Assembly: GCA_964594935.1 (NCBI GenBank)
Contig: CAZQOE010000002.1
Location: 1,358-31,445, forward strand
Reading direction: 5' to 3'
Length of the DNA stretch: 30,088 bases
From: an uncultured Rhodospirillaceae bacterium
GTDB lineage: Bacteria > Pseudomonadota > Alphaproteobacteria > UBA9219
Numbering within the stretch: position 1 is the first letter of the stretch; every line of letters starts with the position of its first letter. The position numbers and the translations under genes are program-made. Positions 20,859 to 29,890 of the stretch are shown piece by piece. The notes beneath the pieces are model-generated. The model was not told the DNA's origin and did not search any database. It saw only the letters and a program-made list of their open reading frames with translations.

Positions 20859-23387
20859 ATGTACCTTGGCATCGATCTCGGCACGTCCAACAGCGCTATC
20901 GCGGGTATCGTCGATGGCAAGGTCCGCATTTTCCGTCCGGCGGACGGCGGCGAGGTTTTGCCCTCCATCATCTATTTCGACAAACGCGGCCATCGCCTCT
21001 ACGGACGCCGCGCCCATGACCAGTCCCTCGTCACGCCCGAAAACGTCGCGGCGGGCTTCAAGCGCCTTATGGGAACCTCGACCCCCATCGAGATTAAAGG
21101 CGTGGAACAGACTTTGACCCCCGAAGAATGCTCGGCCGAAATCATTCGCCAGCTTTTGGGCCAGGCGGCGACCGAAACCGGCGAAACCAAGATTACCGGC
21201 GCCGTCATCACCATTCCCGCCGCGTTCAATCAGATGCAATCCGAAGCGACGTTGCGCGCCGCGAAATTGGCCGGATTGGAACGCGTCGATCTGTTGCAGG
21301 AACCGATTGCGGCCGCGCTTGCCTCCATGGAAGGCGCGAAGCGTTCGGGGCGTTTTCTGATTTACGACTTGGGCGGCGGCACGTTCGACGTGGCGTTGGC
21401 TCAGGCCATCAACGGCGAAGTCAAGATTGTCGCCCATCAAGGCATCAATATGCTCGGCGGGCGCGACTTCGACCGCATGATCGTTAACGAAGTCGTGCGC
21501 CCGTGGCTGGCGGAAACTTTCGACCTTCCGGATAATTTCCAGCGCGACCCTTCGTATCGCCGCCTGATCCGCATTGCGCAACTGGCCGCCGAAAAGGCCA
21601 AAATCGATCTTTCCACGCAGGACAAAACGTCTATCGTCGCTTCCGACGAAGAACTGCGCATGAACGACCAGAACGAGATGGAAATGTATCTGGACGTTCC
21701 CCTGACCCGCGCGCGTTTTGAGGAACTGATCCGCGAACCCATCCAGAAGACCATCGAGCTGATCCGCACGATGCTGAACGAAAACAACGCAAAGAGCGAT
21801 GAAATCGACCGTATCGTCTTTATCGGCGGGCCGAGCCGCATTCCTTTGGTCAGAAAGATGGTTTCGGAAGAACTGGGCATCGCCGCAGACCTGAAAACGG
21901 ACCCCATGACGGCAGTCGCCGCTGGCGCCGCCTATTACTGCGAAGGCCGCCAATGGAACAAATCGAACGTTAGCGAACCCAAGCCCGTGACCGCTTCGGC
22001 CCCCGTGCCCGCCGCAAGCAACGTCACCTATTCCTATACAGCGCGGACGCCCAGCGATAAGACGGTGGTAACCGTCCATGTTTCGGGCGCCGCGTCCGAC
22101 GACCGCAAGATCAAGATCGTGGGCAAAGACTGGGATTCAAGCGATTTGCCGTTGGCCGATAGTTTGACGATTCTTGTGCCTTTGGAAGAACCCGGCGAGC
22201 ATCAATTCACCGCGCATATTCTGGACAACAAGGGCAACGTTCTGGAAAAGCACGACCAGAAGATTTCCATCACGCGCCTTGTCGCTTCGACCGGAAGCAT
22301 TCCGGCGGCGCAGACCATTGCCGTCAAGGTTTTAAACCACATGCATGCGCAGGAAAACGCGCTGATGGCTTTGGTCAAGAAGGGCGACATTCTTCCCGCG
22401 CACGGACGCGTGAAATTCACGAGCGCCCGCGAGCTTAAGGCGCGCGAGGCGGGACATATAAGCTTCGAGCTTTTCCAGATCGAATACGAAGACAGGATCG
22501 ATTTAAATTTGTGCGTCGGCGTTTTCCGCATCGGCGGAGAAGATCTGCCGGAAAACTTCGTTTTAAAGGAAGGCGCTTCGCTGACTTTCGACTGGAAGAT
22601 GACCGACAGCGGCATTTTACAGGCGACCGTATCCGTCCAGAACGAAGACGGCTCGGTCTTGGAGCTTAAGGCGCCGCGTTTCTATGCGCCGCAGGCGGGG
22701 CAAGTCTCGTTTGCGGGCGAACAAGGCGTCAAGTTCGCCTCGGCCATCGTCAAGCAAGGCGAAGAAGAATGGGGCGATCTGGCCGCCGCCGTCGGCCCCG
22801 AAGGCGGCCCTGAAGTTCATTTGCTCAAAATGCGTTTGCAGGAGCAAAGCGAAGTTTTAGGCGAATCCGCGGACGATCCTGAAGCCCTGCGCCGCGCGGC
22901 GGAAGAAGCCCGCTTTGTGCGGCAGGATATCGCCCGCATCGGCAAGAAATACCGTCCCGCATTGTTGCAGCGCCGCTTGGGCAAGATGTCCGCCGTCTTC
23001 AACCGCATTGCTCGTGCGCACGCCTCGAAGTCCGAAAGCGAGCGTTTCGACAACCACGCCTCAAAGGTGCAAGAGATCATCGACAACGGCAAGGCCGAGT
23101 TTTACGACGACGCCGATTTGCATATGTCCGAAATGCGCGATTTGTTCTTTGTCGTCGCGTGGCGCGACGGCGGTTATGTGGCCGCGTGGTTCAAGCGCCT
23201 GTCCGGCGAGCCTTTCCTGTTCCCCGACGTCGAGGAATTCCAGAATTTGGTCAAAGAAGGCGCCGCGCTTGTTTCTTCGCGGGACCCCGAAGCGCTGCGC
23301 ACCGTCGTCAAACGCATGCTGTCCGCGCGCATCGCACTGGGCGCAAGCGACACCGCCGGCGAATTGGCGACGATCGTAAAAGCGTAA
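20859..23387 (+). CDS. Atypical Hsp70-family protein (842 aa)
   Basis: GIDLGTSNS, TIPAAFN, QEPIAAA, YDLGGGTFDV, LGGRDFD, AEKAKIDLS, FIGGPSRIP; no DVLLLD linker; divergent SBD-like segment from about residue 480. Confidence 0.93.
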   Translation: MYLGIDLGTSNSAIAGIVDGKVRIFRPADGGEVLPSIIYFDKRGHRLYGRRAHDQSLVTPENVAAGFKRLMGTSTPIEIKGVEQTLTPEECSAEIIRQLLGQAATETGETKITGAVITIPAAFNQMQSEATLRAAKLAGLERVDLLQEPIAAALASMEGAKRSGRFLIYDLGGGTFDVALAQAINGEVKIVAHQGINMLGGRDFDRMIVNEVVRPWLAETFDLPDNFQRDPSYRRLIRIAQLAAEKAKIDLSTQDKTSIVASDEELRMNDQNEMEMYLDVPLTRARFEELIREPIQKTIELIRTMLNENNAKSDEIDRIVFIGGPSRIPLVRKMVSEELGIAADLKTDPMTAVAAGAAYYCEGRQWNKSNVSEPKPVTASAPVPAASNVTYSYTARTPSDKTVVTVHVSGAASDDRKIKIVGKDWDSSDLPLADSLTILVPLEEPGEHQFTAHILDNKGNVLEKHDQKISITRLVASTGSIPAAQTIAVKVLNHMHAQENALMALVKKGDILPAHGRVKFTSARELKAREAGHISFELFQIEYEDRIDLNLCVGVFRIGGEDLPENFVLKEGASLTFDWKMTDSGILQATVSVQNEDGSVLELKAPRFYAPQAGQVSFAGEQGVKFASAIVKQGEEEWGDLAAAVGPEGGPEVHLLKMRLQEQSEVLGESADDPEALRRAAEEARFVRQDIARIGKKYRPALLQRRLGKMSAVFNRIARAHASKSESERFDNHASKVQEIIDNGKAEFYDDADLHMSEMRDLFFVVAWRDGGYVAAWFKRLSGEPFLFPDVEEFQNLVKEGAALVSSRDPEALRTVVKRMLSARIALGASDTAGELATIVKA

Positions 23388-24267: not shown

Positions 24268-24298
24268 AAAAAAGGCGGGGACTGCTCCCCGCCTTTTT
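24268..24298 (-). terminator. Intrinsic terminator after rplL
   Basis: AAAAAGGCGGGG-ACTGCT-CCCCGCCTTTTT, 21 nt past the rplL stop. Confidence 0.92.
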
Positions 24299-24319
24299 CG
24301 TAACTGACAAGTAAGTCGC

Positions 24320-24691
24320 TTACTTGAGCTCGACGGCTGCGCCGACGGCTTCAAGCTGCTTCTTGAACTTCTCGGCATCGGCCTTGCTGACGCCTTCCTT
24401 AAGCGGCTTCGGAGCGGCTTCGACCAAGTCCTTGGCTTCCTTGAGGCCCAGACCCGTGATCGCGCGGACTTCCTTAATGACTTCGATCTTCTTGTCGCCG
24501 GACTTGGCGAGGACGACCGTGTATTCGCTCTTCTCTTCAGCGGCGGCGGCGGGGCCGGCAGCGGCTGCGGCAGCGGCGACCGGAGCGGCGGCGCTGACGC
24601 CCCACTTGGTTTCCAAAGCCTTCGACAATTCGGCGGCTTCCAAGACCGTCAGCGTGGACAGCTCTTCGACCAGTTTTTCAATCTTCGACAT
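24320..24691 (-). CDS. rplL: 50S ribosomal protein L7/L12
   Basis: [43 protein letters not shown]. Confidence 0.99.
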
Positions 24692-24769
24692 CTTACTTTC
24701 TCCTTTGTTGAACCTAGTTAGTTAATAAAAAACTTCCCTTTCGCCGCCGACGCGGCGAAAGAAAACTTG

Positions 24770-25306
24770 TTAAGCGCTCTGCCTTCCGCGGGCGGCCAGA
24801 ACACGGGCCACCTGCCCCGCCGGAGCCTGAAGAATGCGGGCGATTTGCGATGCGGGCGTCTGCAGCAAGCCGGCGATCTTGGCGCGGAGCTGATCAAGCG
24901 ACGGCAACGCCGCCAGAACCTTGATCTGGGCTTCGTCCATGACTTCGCCGTTCATGATGCCGCCGACGACCTTGAACTTGTCGTTTTTCTTTGCGAATTC
25001 GACCGAAGCTTTGGCTGCGGCGACGACGTCCTTGGAATAAGCCAACGCCGTCGGGCCGTGCAAAAACTTTTCAAGCGCGGCGAACTTGCCTTTTTCGATG
25101 ACGTGCTTGACGAGCTTGTTCTTCGCGACCCTGAGCCCGACGCCTTCTTTGCGCATCGCCACGCGCAAAGCGCGTGTCTGATCGGCGTTAAGGCCGAGCT
25201 GCTGGTTGACGATGATGATTTCCGAATCCTTGATCTCGGCGTCGATGGCCGTGATCTTCTTGCCCTTAATCAGGCGATTGGGGCTTTCGTGCGTCTTCTT
25301 GTTCAT
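24770..25306 (-). CDS. rplJ: 50S ribosomal protein L10
   Basis: LRVAKNKL, GPTALAYS, LAALPSLDQLRAKIAGLLQTPA; true start ATG 25306 with AAGGAG RBS. Confidence 0.97.
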   Translation of the reverse strand: MNKKTHESPNRLIKGKKITAIDAEIKDSEIIIVNQQLGLNADQTRALRVAMRKEGVGLRVAKNKLVKHVIEKGKFAALEKFLHGPTALAYSKDVVAAAKASVEFAKKNDKFKVVGGIMNGEVMDEAQIKVLAALPSLDQLRAKIAGLLQTPASQIARILQAPAGQVARVLAARGRQSA

Positions 25307-25437
25307 GCGTCGCTCCTTCAAAACAAAAACACACCGCGCAAAAAAGCGCGGCGAAAAAATCCAGTTTGTCAGAGGGAAGATGAGAAAGACAACGCGCCTA
25401 AAACGCGGGATGCCCGCGGAAGCGCCTTTTGTCTTGT

Positions 25438-25495
25438 CCCGTCTATTGCTGGCGAATTTTAAGCTTCCGAAGAAGCGCCCGCAGTCTCTGACAGG
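25438..25495 (-). promoter_or_regulatory. rplJ (L10) leader core, autoregulatory RNA
   Basis: Minus strand CCTGTCAGAGACTGCGGGCGC..GCTTAA..CCAGCAATAGACGGG, the usual proteobacterial L10-leader pattern as I recall it. Confidence 0.8.
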
Positions 25496-25524
25496 TTTGC
25501 CTTGTTGCGCAAGGCAGGCAGGGG

Positions 25525-25553
25525 TTGTAGCCCACACCTTCGAACAAAAGCAA
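25525..25553 (-). promoter_or_regulatory. Candidate sigma70 promoter for rplJL
   Basis: Minus strand TTGCTT-N17-CTACAA, about 30 nt upstream of the L10 leader core. Confidence 0.45.
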
Positions 25554-25585
25554 ACAATTTCTCGCCTTTGCCCGTCGCTTTCTTC

Positions 25586-25617
25586 AAAAACACGCCCTCC
25601 GAAGAAGATGTGTTTTT
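25586..25617 (-). terminator. Candidate intrinsic terminator after rplO
   Basis: Minus strand AAAAACAC-ATCTTC-TTCG-GAGGGC-GTGTTTTT: C(UUCG)G-capped stem followed by a U-tract, 18 nt after the rplO stop. Confidence 0.7.
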
Positions 25618-25635
25618 GTTAACAAACCCAAAGAC

Positions 25636-26124
25636 TTATGCAGCCTTTTCTTCTTTCGGCTCGACCTTGACCGTAATCGTGATCTTGCCGCCAGCCTTTT
25701 CAATCGCGGCGATAGCGGATTTGGAAGCTCCCGCAACCGTCACGTCGATCTTGGCCTTAAGTTCGCCTTTGCCGATGATGCGAACGCCGTCGCGAGCCTT
25801 CGAGGCCACGCCGGACGCCATCAGGCTTTCGGACGTAATGGGCTTCGAAGCGTCGATTTGGCCCTTGTCGATCGCGGCCTGCAGACGAAGAAGATTCACG
25901 GCCGAATAATCCTTGGCGAAAATGTTCTTGAAACCGCGCTTGGGCAAGCGGCGGGCGAGCGGCATCTGGCCGCCGATGAACCCCTTAAGGCGCACGCCCG
26001 TACGAGCCTTCTGGCCCTTGACGCCGCGGCCGCAGGTCTTGCCCTTGCCGGAGCCGATGCCACGGCCCACGGTAATGCGCGTTTTGCGCGCGCCGGGATT
26101 GTCACGGAGATCGTTGAGCTTCAT
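25636..26124 (-). CDS. rplO: 50S ribosomal protein L15
   Basis: [38 protein letters not shown]. Confidence 0.99.
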
Positions 26125-26128
26125 TTTC

Positions 26129-26344
26129 TTAATCCTTCTTTTCTACCACGGTCACCAAATGGCGAACGCGGGTAATCATGCCGCGAACGGCCGGCGTGTC
26201 TTGCAATTCGCGCGTCTTGCGGACGCGTCCAAGGCCGAGGCCGAGCAGCGTTTCTTTCATTTTCGGGCCGTTGCCGGTCGTGCCGCCGATTTGCGTCACG
26301 AGGAGCGTCTTGCCCGATTTCTTTGTCTGAACCTTGGTTGTCAT
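26129..26344 (-). CDS. rpmD: 50S ribosomal protein L30
   Basis: [33 protein letters not shown]; position between rpsE and rplO. Confidence 0.96.
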
Positions 26345-26919
26345 TTCACGTCCCCGTATTCCTTAGCGACTTCCTCGGCCTGTTTCTTGCCGAGAATTTC
26401 GTTGACCTTCTTGCCGCGGCGCACCGCGACCGAACGCGGGCTGGCGACCTGATCGAGCGCGGCGAACGTCGCCTTGATCATGTTGTGAGGATTGCTGGAA
26501 CCGACGGACTTGGCGACCACGTCGTGGATGCCCAGAGCTTCGAACAGCGCGCGCATCGGGCCGCCCGCGATGATACCGGTACCCGCAGGAGCCGTGCGCA
26601 AAACGACCTTGCCCGCGCCGTAGCGGCCCAGAACGTCGTGATGCAATGTCCGGCCTTCGCGCAACGGAATGCGCTTCATATTGCGCTTGGCGGCGTTCGT
26701 CGCCTTCGAAATCGCTTCGGGAACTTCGCGAGCCTTGCCCGTGCCGTAACCGACGCGGCCTTTGCCGTCGCCGACGATCACCATCGCGGCCATCTTGAAG
26801 CTTTTGCCGCCTTTGACGACCTTGGTCACGCGGTTGATGCCGACGAGCTTTTCGATAAGCTCGCTGCCTTCGCGTTCGTCTTTGTCTTCGCTCTTTTTTG
26901 ATCTTTCGGGCTTCGCCAT
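26341..26919 (-). CDS. rpsE: 30S ribosomal protein S5
   Basis: [33 protein letters not shown]. Confidence 0.99.
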
Positions 26920-26938
26920 ACTATTTTCCTCTGTTTAA

Positions 26939-27301
26939 TTAGAAGGACAGGCCGGCGCTGCGCGCGGCCTCGGCCAATTCCTTGACGCGGCCGTGGTAGA
27001 TGTAACCGCCGCGGTCGAACACAACTTCCTTGATCCCCGCCTTGATGGCGCGTTCGGCAACCAGTTCGCCGACGGCCTTGGCCGCCGCCTTGTTGGCTCC
27101 CGTCTTGAGCTTCTTTTTAAGAGCCTCTTCGAGCGTCGACGCGGCGACGAGGGTCTTGCCCGCCTTGTCGTCGATGATCTGGACGGAGATGTTTTTCTCC
27201 GAGCGATGCACCGACAGGCGCGGACGGCCGTGCGCGTTCTTCGCTATGTTGTAGCGGGTGCGCTTGGCGCGGCGTTCGTGGAGTTCTTTTGCACTTAACA
27301 T
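26939..27301 (-). CDS. rplR: 50S ribosomal protein L18
   Basis: [37 protein letters not shown]. Confidence 0.99.
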
Positions 27302-27322
27302 GTTAGCCTCTGTTCATTTCCT

Positions 27323-27856
27323 TTATTTCTTCTTGCCTTCTTTGCGGCGGATGACTTCGCCTTGATACATAATGCCTTTGCCCTTGTAGGGTTCCGGCTT
27401 CTTCATGCCGCGAATTTCCGCTGCGACTTGGCCGACTTGCTGCTTGTCGATGCCCGTAATTTCCAGCACGGTCGGCTTTGCGGCCTTGATCGTGATTCCC
27501 GCCGGAGGCGCAAAGCGCACTTCGTGGCTGAAGCCGATTTGAAGGACCAGATCCTTGCCCTGCATGGCCGCTTTAAAGCCGACGCCTTCGATTTGAAGCG
27601 TCGTCTTGAAGCCTTCGGTCACGCCCTTGACCATATTGTTGATGTTGTTGCGGGCCGTTCCCCACAAAACGCGCGCGCGAGGAGAATCATGGGCCTTGGA
27701 AACGGCGATTTTGCCGCCTTCGACCTTAAGGCCGATTTCTGACGGAACGGTAAGGCTCAGGTTTCCCAGCTTGCCCTTAACGGCAATGGTCTGGCCTTTC
27801 ACTTCCGCCGTAACGCCTTGCGGCAGAGCGACGGGATATTTGCCAACGCGTGACAT
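27323..27856 (-). CDS. rplF: 50S ribosomal protein L6
   Basis: MSRVGKYPV, GVGFKA, KPEPYKGKGI. Confidence 0.99.
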   Translation of the reverse strand: MSRVGKYPVALPQGVTAEVKGQTIAVKGKLGNLSLTVPSEIGLKVEGGKIAVSKAHDSPRARVLWGTARNNINNMVKGVTEGFKTTLQIEGVGFKAAMQGKDLVLQIGFSHEVRFAPPAGITIKAAKPTVLEITGIDKQQVGQVAAEIRGMKKPEPYKGKGIMYQGEVIRRKEGKKK

Positions 27857-27894
27857 TTTCTTACCTCAAACTTTCGTGACTCATCACTCTCGAA

Positions 27895-28296
27895 TTAAAA
27901 CACCCGACAAAGGACTTCTCCTCCGACGTGTTGCGCGCGCGCTTCGTTGTCCGAAAGCACGCCACGCGGCGTCGAAAGAATGGATATGCCAAGTCCGTTG
28001 AAAACGCGGCCCAGATCCTTGATGCCGGCGTAAACGCGGCGTCCGGGGGTCGAAACGCGCTCAATTTTACGAATAGCTGGCGAGCCTTCGTGGTACTTCA
28101 GTTCGATTTCGAACTGGGCTTGCGCCGTCCCCTTTTTCACTTCCGTATAGCCGCGGATATAGCCTTCGCGGATCAGCGTTTCGAGAACGTCCTTGCGGTG
28201 TCTCGACGCCGGACAGCCTACGACCGCCATATTCGCCATCTGACCGTTACGAATGCGGGTCAGCATATCGCCAATTGTATCGGTTACTACAGACAT
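27895..28296 (-). CDS. rpsH: 30S ribosomal protein S8
   Basis: DTIGDMLTRIRNG, RVSTPGRRVY, GISILSTPRGV; start at ATG 28296. Confidence 0.99.
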   Translation of the reverse strand: MSVVTDTIGDMLTRIRNGQMANMAVVGCPASRHRKDVLETLIREGYIRGYTEVKKGTAQAQFEIELKYHEGSPAIRKIERVSTPGRRVYAGIKDLGRVFNGLGISILSTPRGVLSDNEARAQHVGGEVLCRVF

Positions 28297-28309
28297 ATGG
28301 GCCCCTCCC

Positions 28310-28615
28310 TTACCAGCTCGACTTGACCACACCCGGGATCTGGCCCGAAGAGGCCAGCTCGCGGAATTTAATGCGGCTAAGTTTGAATTTGCGATAGTTG
28401 CCGCGGGGACGTCCCGTCAGCAAGCAGCGATTGTGTTGGCGAATCTTCGCGCCGTTGCGCGGCATTTCCGCCAGCTTCATGACAGCTTCGAAACGCTCTT
28501 CCATCGACGTTTCCTTATTATGGATCGTGGCGTTAAGGGCCGCGCGGCGTTTCGAGAACTTCTTCTCGAGCCGTTTGCGCTTGCCTTCCTTTTCGATCAT
28601 GCATTTTTTAGCCAT
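28310..28615 (-). CDS. rpsN: 30S ribosomal protein S14 (long, Zn-independent type)
   Basis: [27 protein letters not shown]; 101 aa. Confidence 0.99.
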
Positions 28616-29195
28616 TCGTTTTTTCTCCTTGCGCCTGGAAGGGCATGTTGAAAGCGCGTAGCAATTCGCGCGCTTCGTCGTCGGTTTTCGCGGTCGTGCA
28701 GATCACGATGTCCATGCCGCGGATTTCGTCGATCTTGTCGTATTCGATTTCGGGAAACACGATCTGTTCCTTAAGGCCCAGCGCGTAGTTGCCGCTGCCG
28801 TCGAAGCTCTTGGCCGAAACGCCGCGGAAGTCGCGCACGCGCGGCAGAGCGATCGTAATCAGGCGGTCGAGAAATTCGTACATCTTGTCGCGGCGAAGCG
28901 TGACTTTGCAGCCGATGCCCAAGCCCCCGCGCAATTTGAACGCAGCGATGGCCTTGCGCGATTGGGTGATGACGGGCTTCTGACCCGCGATCAGCGCAAG
29001 TTCTTCAGCCGCGTTCTTCGTCTTCTTGCTGTCATTGACGGCTTCGCCCACGCCCATGTTGATGACGATCTTGTCAAGGTGCGGGATCTGCATGGCGTTC
29101 TTGTAGCCGAATTTCTTGGTCAGGTCGGCTTTCACCGTGTCCTGATAGAGCTTCTGCAAGCGCGGAACGTATTTATCTTTTTTCGCTGCAACCAT
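28608..29195 (-). CDS. rplE: 50S ribosomal protein L5
   Basis: [34 protein letters not shown]; start at ATG 29195. Confidence 0.99.
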
Positions 29196-29205
29196 TTTAA
29201 ACCTC

Positions 29206-29511
29206 TTAAACTTCTTCGCCGGAGCGACGCGCAACGCGCGTTTTGACGCCCTTGACGAACTTGTAGCCGACGCGCGTCGCCTTGCTGGTCTTGGTATCGA
29301 CAAGCGCGACGTTCGACGCATGAATAGGAGCCTCGCGGCGAATGATGCCGCCCTGTGGATTACCCTGCGAAGGCTTCGTGTGGCGCGCAATCATGTTGAC
29401 GCCCGAAACCGTGACGCGATTGTCCTTAGGATAAACGGACGTGATTTCGCCCGTCTTGCCTTTGTCTTTGCCCGCCAGCACAATCACTTTGTCTTTTTTC
29501 TTGATCTTCAT
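29206..29511 (-). CDS. rplX: 50S ribosomal protein L24
   Basis: [13 protein letters not shown] (KOW), EAPIHASNV. Confidence 0.99.
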
Positions 29512-29521
29512 AGTCCCGTCC

Positions 29522-29890
29522 TCACAAAACTTCTTCGGCTAAAGAGATGATCTTCATAAAGCCAAGGCTGCGCAGTTCGCGCGTCACCGGCCCAAAGATG
29601 CGGGTGCCGATGGGTTCCAGATCCTTGTTGATCAGCACGGCCGCGTTTTTATCGAAGCGGATCAGCGTGCCGTCTTTGCGGTGCAGCGCGTACTTCTGGC
29701 GAACGATGACAGCCTTATGGACGTCGCCCTTCTTGACCTTGCCGCGCGGAATGGCTTCGCGGATCGATACGACGATGATGTCGCCGATCGTCGCCGTCGT
29801 CCGGTGAGAGCCGCCCGGAACCTTGATGCAGCACACGGCTTTTGCGCCGCTGTTATCCGCTACCTCAAGGACTGTTTCCATTTGAATCAT
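29522..29890 (-). CDS. rplN: 50S ribosomal protein L14
   Basis: [30 protein letters not shown]. Confidence 0.99.

Follow-up and report, generated by a model that had tools for sequence, protein, structure and literature searches.

A free-standing rplJL unit behind a secY-less spc operon in an uncultured Rhodospirillaceae bacterium

In a 30,088-nucleotide (nt) stretch of the genome of an uncultured Rhodospirillaceae bacterium (GenBank assembly GCA_964594935.1, contig CAZQOE010000002.1, positions 1,358 to 31,445; the window from here on), the spc operon of ribosomal protein (r-protein) genes ends at rplO, and the next genes on that strand are rplJ and rplL, which encode L10 and L7/L12. We consider it very probable that this is a genuine chromosomal arrangement and that rplJL was moved whole, with its promoter, leader and terminator, to a position 3' of spc. 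The r-protein/RNA polymerase supercluster is the textbook exception to the fast decay of gene order in bacteria, its usual orders being rplO-secY-adk-rpsM-rpsK-rpoA and rplK-rplA-rplJ-rplL-rpoB-rpoC. An initial annotation of the window had described a real and settled rearrangement that uncouples secY and the RNA polymerase genes from the r-protein operons. Both parts of that description were borne out, the first by the terminator and promoter that each unit has of its own and the second by the location of the displaced genes on other contigs.

The rplO-rplJ junction and its missing neighbors

Genes were identified by Pfam scans of consecutive open reading frames (ORFs) on the minus strand. 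The spc segment keeps the canonical order from rplN to rplO, and neither secY nor rpmJ follows its final gene; the contig end falls upstream of the segment. After a spacer of 329 nt comes rplJ, with rplL directly behind it across a 78-nt spacer, as in the rplKAJL-rpoBC cluster. The features that make up the junction are as follows.

25636..29890, minus strand: spc segment rplN-rplX-rplE-rpsN-rpsH-rplF-rplR-rpsE-rpmD-rplO (Pfam, ORF map)
26124-25636, minus strand: rplO (Pfam)
25617-25586, minus strand: intrinsic terminator with a UUCG loop after rplO (sequence and fold)
25555..25645, minus strand: genome-specific junction segment (blastn homology boundaries)
25525..25553, minus strand: candidate rplJ promoter, TTGCTT (25553-25548), a 17-nt spacer and CTACAA (25530-25525) (conserved position)
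25307..25520, minus strand: rplJ 5' leader (fold, alignment and covariation)
25306-24770, minus strand: rplJ, ribosomal protein L10, 178 amino acids (aa) (Pfam PF00466, E 1e-15)
24691-24320, minus strand: rplL, ribosomal protein L7/L12, 123 aa (Pfam PF00542 and PF16320)
24298-24268, minus strand: strong intrinsic terminator closing the rplJL unit (sequence and fold)
24089-23889, minus strand: DUF465 gene (Pfam PF04325)

A GC-rich hairpin with a U-tract, the mark of an intrinsic terminator, stands at the end of both units (25617-25586 and 24298-24268). The rplO terminator opens the 329-nt spacer and has the bidirectional form AAAAA-CACAUCUUC-UUCG-GAGGGCGUG-UUUUU, with the 66-nt stretch around it folding at -17.7 kcal/mol (z -2.7). 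The one 3' of rplL has a 14 base pair (bp) GC-rich stem followed by U6 and is more stable (-27.4 kcal/mol, z -4.0). The coordinates and gene calls of the initial annotation thus proved correct by Pfam and sequence, and the UUCG hairpin with its U-tract behind rplO (sequence and fold) and the strong terminator behind rplL, followed by DUF465 (fold and Pfam), were likewise confirmed. When the 330 nt upstream of rplJ were aligned for 19 congeners, TTGC(T/A)T-N17-CTA(N)AA was found at the same place, with similarity stopping just upstream of the -35 hexamer. This conservation of position, which holds for both hexamers in 18 congeners and extends to those that retain rplKAJL, upholds the promoter proposed earlier at 25525-25553, even though a generic sigma-70 scan missed it. 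The position of promoter and leader is unchanged whether rplA, an orphan gene or rplO lies upstream.

The metagenome-assembled genome (MAG) from which the window comes measures 1.74 Mb in 247 contigs and is 93% complete with 3.1% contamination. Within it, secY-adk lies on contig C5, 3' of a ubiB-type kinase gene and followed by divergent anmK and by tyrS; rpsM-rpsK-rpoA-rplQ on C133, behind a histidine kinase gene of the Hpt/HATPase type; rplK-rplA on C60, with a divergent TPR gene on one side and an unassigned ORF on the other; and the N-terminus of rpoB (its first 142 codons) on C31, behind an AT-rich spacer of about 500 nt, an acyltransferase gene and uvrD. The genes rplJ, secY, adk, rplKA and rpoB and those of the alpha operon each occur in a single copy. 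With its neighbors scattered over contigs in this way, the classical supercluster falls into six or more units: spc as far as rplO, ubiB-secY-adk, rpsM-rpsK-rpoA-rplQ, rplK-rplA, rplJ-rplL and rpoB(C). The rplO|secY, rplA|rplJ, rplL|rpoB and adk|rpsM junctions are all non-canonical. That secY, rplKA and rpoB do not adjoin the locus was already evident from the initial annotation, and their non-ribosomal neighbors on C5, C60 and C31 now account for them. The count of two broken conserved junctions given there was right for both but fell short, since a third, rplA|rplJ, is broken as well. The Acyl_transf_3 gene upstream of rpoB (L179:1173-2313, G000:C31) is itself split into two overlapping ORFs, an N-terminal half at 1411-2313 and a C-terminal half at 1173-1487, possibly by a frameshift or a sequencing error.

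Age and distribution of the breaks

To place the breaks, rplO, secY, rplJ and rpoB were located in all 71 genomes of the order, which fall into three families (that of this genome, f2 and f3). The genus is represented by 21 genomes, 18 of which hold both rplO and secY. A class-level sample of 80 alphaproteobacterial loci was retrieved via L10, and a metagenome sample consisted of 80 contigs coding for relatives of this L15, 67 of them with room 3' of rplO. In f2, rplO and secY are adjacent or at most 3.5 kb apart (8/8); they are adjacent or near in f3 (five of six informative genomes) and in ten genomes from other genera of the same family, and uncoupled in all 18 informative genomes of the genus. 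The two genes are also unlinked in genera g2, g17, g22 and g25 (for g22 the genomes are G053 and G054; no claim is based on G053). Nearly the entire order has rplL uncoupled from rpoB: the two genes are adjacent or near in just six genomes, all from other genera of the family (G055, G066, G068, G044, G045 and G065). In f2, rpoB is found on the rplJ strand, 17-19 kb upstream of that gene; in G032, a genome in two contigs, rplL and rpoB are 0.9 Mb apart; and members of the genus that retain rplKAJL, such as G005, have rpoB on a separate contig. Uncoupling of rplA from rplJ marks a subclade of 15 genomes, in which DUF465 is the conserved downstream neighbor of rplJL by synteny. Linkage of rplO to rplJ, finally, was seen in seven of the 21 genomes of the genus and in G044 (genus g17, same family), whereas neither sister family showed it. 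In the class sample, 64 of 80 loci have the full rplA-rplJL-rpoB order and nearly all exceptions are relatives from this lineage; among the metagenome contigs, secY comes next after rplO in 59 of 67 and rplJ follows at +1.4 kb in one. The survey of rplO-rplJ adjacency that had been proposed as a check thus finds it rare and not common in the family or the order.

In the sister families (L050-L054), an insert of 2-3.5 kb separates rplA from rplJ. These inserts, and the position of rpoB in f2, indicate that the cluster was rearranged differently there. In the sphingomonad Stakelama sediminis (L103), rplA upstream and rpoB downstream are missing within the tested distance, so rplJL may be free-standing in one or more further alphaproteobacterial lineages.

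These states are nested on a quick maximum-likelihood tree of concatenated SecY, Adk, L10 and L12 from 28 genomes. The rplKAJL genomes (G003, G005, G006, G009 and G016) are basal in the genus; a clade of 15 (99%) takes in every genome seen with rplJL-DUF465; a clade of 13 nested inside it (98%) contains every member of the genus with rplO…rplJ linkage; and the closest group of this genome is formed with G020, G002 and G017 (96%). On the most economical reading of this topology, rpoB would have been uncoupled early in the order, and secY-adk prior to the divergence of the genus. The rplJL pair would later have split from rplKA and been placed ahead of DUF465, the resulting block would have been linked to the spc end with orphan genes between, and the orphan would have been lost in this genome. 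The earlier suggestion that the arrangement could be a lineage marker thus holds in the form of a nested set of markers: rpoB uncoupled, secY uncoupled, rplJL relocated, spc and rplJL linked, and orphan lost can each be used as synapomorphies.

The last of these states is best seen by comparison with the six congeners in which rplO and rplJL lie on one strand 1.2-3.1 kb apart (G020, G004, G002, G013, G010 and G011); in three of them (G020, G004 and G011) the shared block extends all the way from rpsH to the fourth gene past DUF465. In all six, between one and three ORFs of 230-275 aa, weakly related to each other, occupy the gap on the opposite strand. They belong to no Pfam family, none was detected in this assembly, and Atlas gave weak P-loop/TsaE-like leads alone (score 0.83, TM 0.47). 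Homology to G020, G004 and G002 ends at about 25646-25672 on the rplO side and restarts at 25554-25532 on the leader side by blastn, such that about 90 nt here stand in for 1.1-1.2 kb with an opposite-strand orphan gene in those genomes. In G020, a terminator made of an A-tract, a hairpin and a T-tract separates the convergent rplO and orphan gene, and the terminator here has the same two-faced form. Direct adjacency of rplO and rplJ occurs in no other of the 71 genomes of the order and in none of the 80 metagenome contigs, and an exact search of metagenome contigs for the junction hairpin gave no matches. The tight junction thus reflects a loss that is recent and confined to this lineage, the adjacency having come about because an orphan gene was lost that still parts rplO from rplJ in the closest relatives. 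Lying between two r-protein units, the gap acts as a hotspot of variation. What had been described as rewiring within 2 kb is therefore present as a rearrangement, but as a stack of events of different ages rather than one, with only the direct adjacency peculiar to this genome.

As an example of the gap ORFs, the one in G020 lies at L035:7693-8517 and has fast-evolving counterparts in L036, L038, L039 and L041. The possibility that relatives carry secY inside the gap was discarded on the gap content, which consists of the opposite-strand orphan ORFs.

Under the reading that we prefer, most spc transcripts would stop at the rplO terminator and rplJL would be transcribed from TTGCTT-N17-CTACAA. 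The most serious alternative is a functional fusion, in which a leaky rplO terminator makes rplJL also the tail of the spc mRNA in a super-operon of coupled dosage. If selected for, such coupling would account for the two occasions on which an r-protein unit became attached to the rplO end. The co-stranded units are separated by just 329 nt here, the rplO hairpin has only moderate stability (-17.7 kcal/mol, U5), and in G044, which belongs to another genus, rplO is directly followed by rplK-rplA-rplJ-rplL and rpoB on one strand. The rplJ promoter, however, is conserved, and co-transcription is ruled out in the six congeners because opposite-strand genes part the units. We regard a functional fusion as unlikely.

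It is far less probable that the contig artificially fuses unrelated pieces at the rplO/rplJ spacer, or that assembly collapse dropped a real orphan gene. The fragmentation and contamination of the MAG and the absence of direct adjacency from every other assembly or metagenome contig examined are compatible with an artefact of this kind. Against it, six independently assembled congeners repeat the order and orientation of spc…rplO, rplJL, DUF465 and the Hsp70-like gene and beyond, and the arrangement is found again on one metagenome contig. The new surroundings of the displaced genes also recur: secY regions were retrieved for 17 congeners, and 12 of these have the ubiB-secY-adk context, and the divergent TPR gene stands beside rplK in G003 and G005, both of the congeners whose region extends upstream of rplK. 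The window is without N's, and the sole scaffold gap of the contig lies just before it. At the junction itself there is no repeat of at least 20 nt found elsewhere in the assembly and no composition step, and the junction bears a well-formed terminator.

The least likely alternative, that an rplJL cassette was gained behind rplO by horizontal transfer and the native copy beside rplKA lost, has a parallel in the proposal that rplJL of Haemophilus influenzae Rd was relocated by duplication, or by transfer from close relatives, with a later loss (PMC8046335), but it is rejected here because L10 identity declines smoothly along the species tree (89% to 64% within the genus), L10 and L12 concatenated with SecY and Adk give well-supported clades, promoter and leader are the genus's own, the assembly holds a single rplJ, and no mobile-element genes flank rplJL.

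Several points nevertheless count against a whole-unit relocation as told here. The 329-nt direct adjacency is known from one contig of a fragmented MAG and was found in no other contig of the collections searched. Many of the cases scored as lying on another contig are ambiguous because the contigs are short. The order and direction of the events are drawn from a quick tree and are only inferred, since several of its forks are unresolved and it is not independently rooted.

The rplJ leader RNA

The unit appears to have carried its structured leader with it. About 150 nt of the leader are conserved. The leader folds with a minimum free energy of -90.8 kcal/mol (z -3.4), and its parts are a P0 hairpin, the L10-site hairpin, a variable P3 stem, a long-range P1 helix, a distal hairpin and the Shine-Dalgarno (SD) sequence. 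Its elements are listed below.

25497-25435, minus strand: putative L10(L12)4 site, 129-191 nt upstream of the rplJ ATG and hence in the 5' untranslated region (UTR) (invariant columns, covariation and model R1)
25374-25367, minus strand: 3' strand of P1, CUCUGACA, pairing with UGUCAGAG at 25493-25486
25353-25320, minus strand: terminator-like hairpin CGCCGCGC-U6-GCGCGGUG and U-rich tract (-16.2 kcal/mol, z -3.6)
25318-25313, minus strand: Shine-Dalgarno AAGGAG, just past the terminator-like hairpin

Covariation was counted for two hand-specified structures on an alignment of 18 sequences. Of the alignment cells, 91% and 97% were paired, compared with 45-57% and 30-50% when the partners were slid. 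Compensatory changes affected 17 and 13 pairs, and none of 500 shuffles attained the observed values. Support is good for the P0 5' hairpin (5/6 pairs compensated) and the apical helix of the central hairpin (5/5), and in P1 for one clearly covarying pair at alignment columns 43/202 (GC 9, CG 5, AU 2). As drawn on the alignment, the P1 partners are UGUCNGAG (25493-25486) and CUCNGACA (25374-25367).

Published L10(L12)4 sites have a kink-turn, a bulged C in a non-canonical stem, and an internal loop in the apical hairpin with two unpaired A's (UAA) (Fu et al. 2013, PMC3616713; Yakhnin et al. 2015, PMC4538822). A comparable set of features can be traced in the central hairpin. The putative kink-turn has a C-stem CCUG/CGGG, a 3-nt bulge UCN and an invariant GAGAC opposite AAUAGA, which would supply tandem G·A pairs and the bulged C. 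Drawn pair by pair, the element would continue past the bulge as G·A, A·G, G·A, A-U, C opposite A, UGC/GCA, G·A and GGC/GCC. The bulged C, invariant at position 14 of alignment A2 (window position 25484), separates the A-U pair from the UGC/GCA helix. The top of the putative site consists of a 9-nt 3' loop, UUAAAAUUC, and then GCUUC-UUCG-GAAGC. The loop is asymmetric and lies under the 5-bp helix; its U36 and A40 are invariant and its U37, A38 and A39 at least 90% conserved. The proposed kink-turn nucleotides, together with UUAA, are the invariant columns of the alignment.

RF00557, the Rfam L10_leader model, gave no match in the window even at E<=10, none at E<=0.1 in 19 related loci, and none at its gathering score in 11 ordinary alphaproteobacterial loci. 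Because the model misses ordinary alphaproteobacterial rplJ leaders too, we did not take its silence as absence. A 62-position covariance model built from the genus (model R1) behaved differently: of 94 alphaproteobacterial loci, 59 gave a single match that lay 130-290 nt ahead of rplJ and on its strand, among them Inquilinus, Terasakiella, Ferrovibrio, Stakelama, Enhydrobacter, Elioraea, Pelagibius and Reyranella. R1 thus recovers alphaproteobacterial rplJ leaders to which the Rfam model assigns no score. Given these matches and the features shared with published sites, the element is treated as an alphaproteobacterial form of the L10 leader, and it most likely senses free L10(L12)4. The intact L10 leader of the initial annotation accordingly stands as a conserved, covarying RNA with the published features of an L10 site, but not as a match to RF00557.

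A regulatory circuit can be proposed from these parts. Excess L10(L12)4 would bind the K-turn/UUAA hairpin at 25497-25435. P1 and the kink-turn are mutually exclusive because both use the same 5' strand, and binding would block P1, freeing CUCNGACA and the pyrimidine-rich stretch before it. Expression of rplJL would thereby be lowered, either at the distal terminator-like hairpin (attenuation) or at the ribosome binding site (SD masking). Attenuation is the mode used in Bacillus subtilis, and SD masking has been proposed for E. coli; the work of Iben and Draper (2008) is reportedly among the studies on leader RNA that interacts with L10(L12)4. The distal hairpin lies at an equivalent place in most congeners and may be either an attenuator or the end of a stem that masks the SD.

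Not all results favor this account of the leader. The Rfam L10_leader model gives it no score. Covariation neither supports nor refutes the kink-turn, since the C-stem barely varies and the motif was assigned by eye. When the leader model was run against the 23S rRNA of G020 and G032 as a test of mimicry, it returned noise only (E>1). SD masking by the pyrimidine tract, as evaluated with RNAduplex, was no better than composition-matched shuffles in 12 of 16 genomes, with the other four at z < -1.5.

By eye, helix 42 of the G020 23S rRNA has AGAC…UAG and UUAA as in the leader, in another layout, and no claim is made from it. The 23S match in G020 (L261, G020:C2:61280-64741) is 3462 nt long, about 500 nt over the 2925-position model, which suggests an intervening sequence or an expansion.

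Comparison with known systems and remaining features

The closest published comparison is a survey of Gammaproteobacteria and Bacilli (Brandis 2021, PMC8046335), in which secY outside spc and rplJL outside the rpoBC operon were single-species cases (Bacillus selenitireducens and Haemophilus influenzae Rd, respectively), and in which a few foreign genes invade the inter-operon spacer ahead of further rearrangement. As in that survey, gene content and internal order of the units are kept here and disruptions fall between operons, and the orphans that part rplO from rplJ in the congeners resemble the invasion of a spacer by foreign genes. Unlike there, both breaks are genus-wide, and to them are added the breaks at rplA|rplJ and adk|rpsM and the new spc-rplJL junction. 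Each type of event already has a published precedent; new are their combination across a genus and the spc-rplJL junction. Within the family, the nearest parallel is G044 (L145, C1:586000-604000), with rpsH…rpmD-rplO-rplK-rplA-rplJ-rplL-(1.7 kb)-rpoB on one strand. Both genomes have a secY-less spc that ends at rplO with the L10/L12 genes next on the same strand, but in G044 rplKA and rpoB are still attached, whereas here rplJL stands alone and is followed by DUF465.

The leader can be compared with the RF00557 class in the same way. It shares with that class the location in the rplJ 5' UTR, the sequence pattern of a kink-turn, the bulged C and the invariant unpaired A's (UUAA) in the apical loop, and its distal hairpin and U-tract resemble the Firmicute attenuator; the Rfam L10_leader alignment includes a terminator, according to Fu et al. 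(2013, PMC3616713). It differs in its lack of an Rfam score, in a P1 that competes for the strand of the kink-turn and in its variable P3, and its binding of L10(L12)4 is putative.

All breakpoints fall between autoregulatory units. Genus-wide breaks at the edges of such units, with promoter and leader carried along, support the self-regulating module, rather than the cluster, as the unit under selection. A broader reading, which we put forward tentatively and as the less probable side of the question, takes the order as a natural experiment in which the supercluster dissolved exactly into its autoregulatory modules, sees in the joining of the L10/L12 block to a secY-less spc in two genera a hint of selection for co-orientation or co-location, and at the same time makes the rplJ leader an uncurated alphaproteobacterial branch of L10(L12)4 sensors with P1 versus the K-turn as its switch. 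In any case, our understanding of ribosome synthesis is unchanged: the rearrangement is of an ordinary kind, a tidy case rather than a surprise.

The remaining features of the window that bear on the two units are listed here.

29890-29522, minus strand: rplN (Pfam)
29511-29206, minus strand: rplX (Pfam)
end at 28608, minus strand: rplE (Pfam)
28615-28310, minus strand: rpsN (Pfam)
28293-27895, minus strand: rpsH (Pfam)
27856-27323, minus strand: rplF (Pfam)
27301-26939, minus strand: rplR (Pfam)
26919-26341, minus strand: rpsE (Pfam)
26344-26129, minus strand: rpmD (Pfam)
24765-24734, minus strand: hairpin in the rplJ-rplL spacer, 14 bp and U6 (-23.9 kcal/mol, z -4.5)

The hairpin between rplJ and rplL has the look of a terminator, an odd thing to find there given that four copies of L12 are required for every L10. 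Roughly half the congeners carry such a hairpin, with flanks GUUUUyC…GrAAAGUUUU and covarying interiors, and the rest have none. It could be an attenuator, a stabilizer or a small inserted palindrome. Beyond DUF465, the plus strand of the window (20859-23387) encodes an 842-aa protein with an Hsp70 ATPase domain confined to its first ~360 residues, and this Hsp70-like gene is kept beside DUF465 in G020, G004 and G011.

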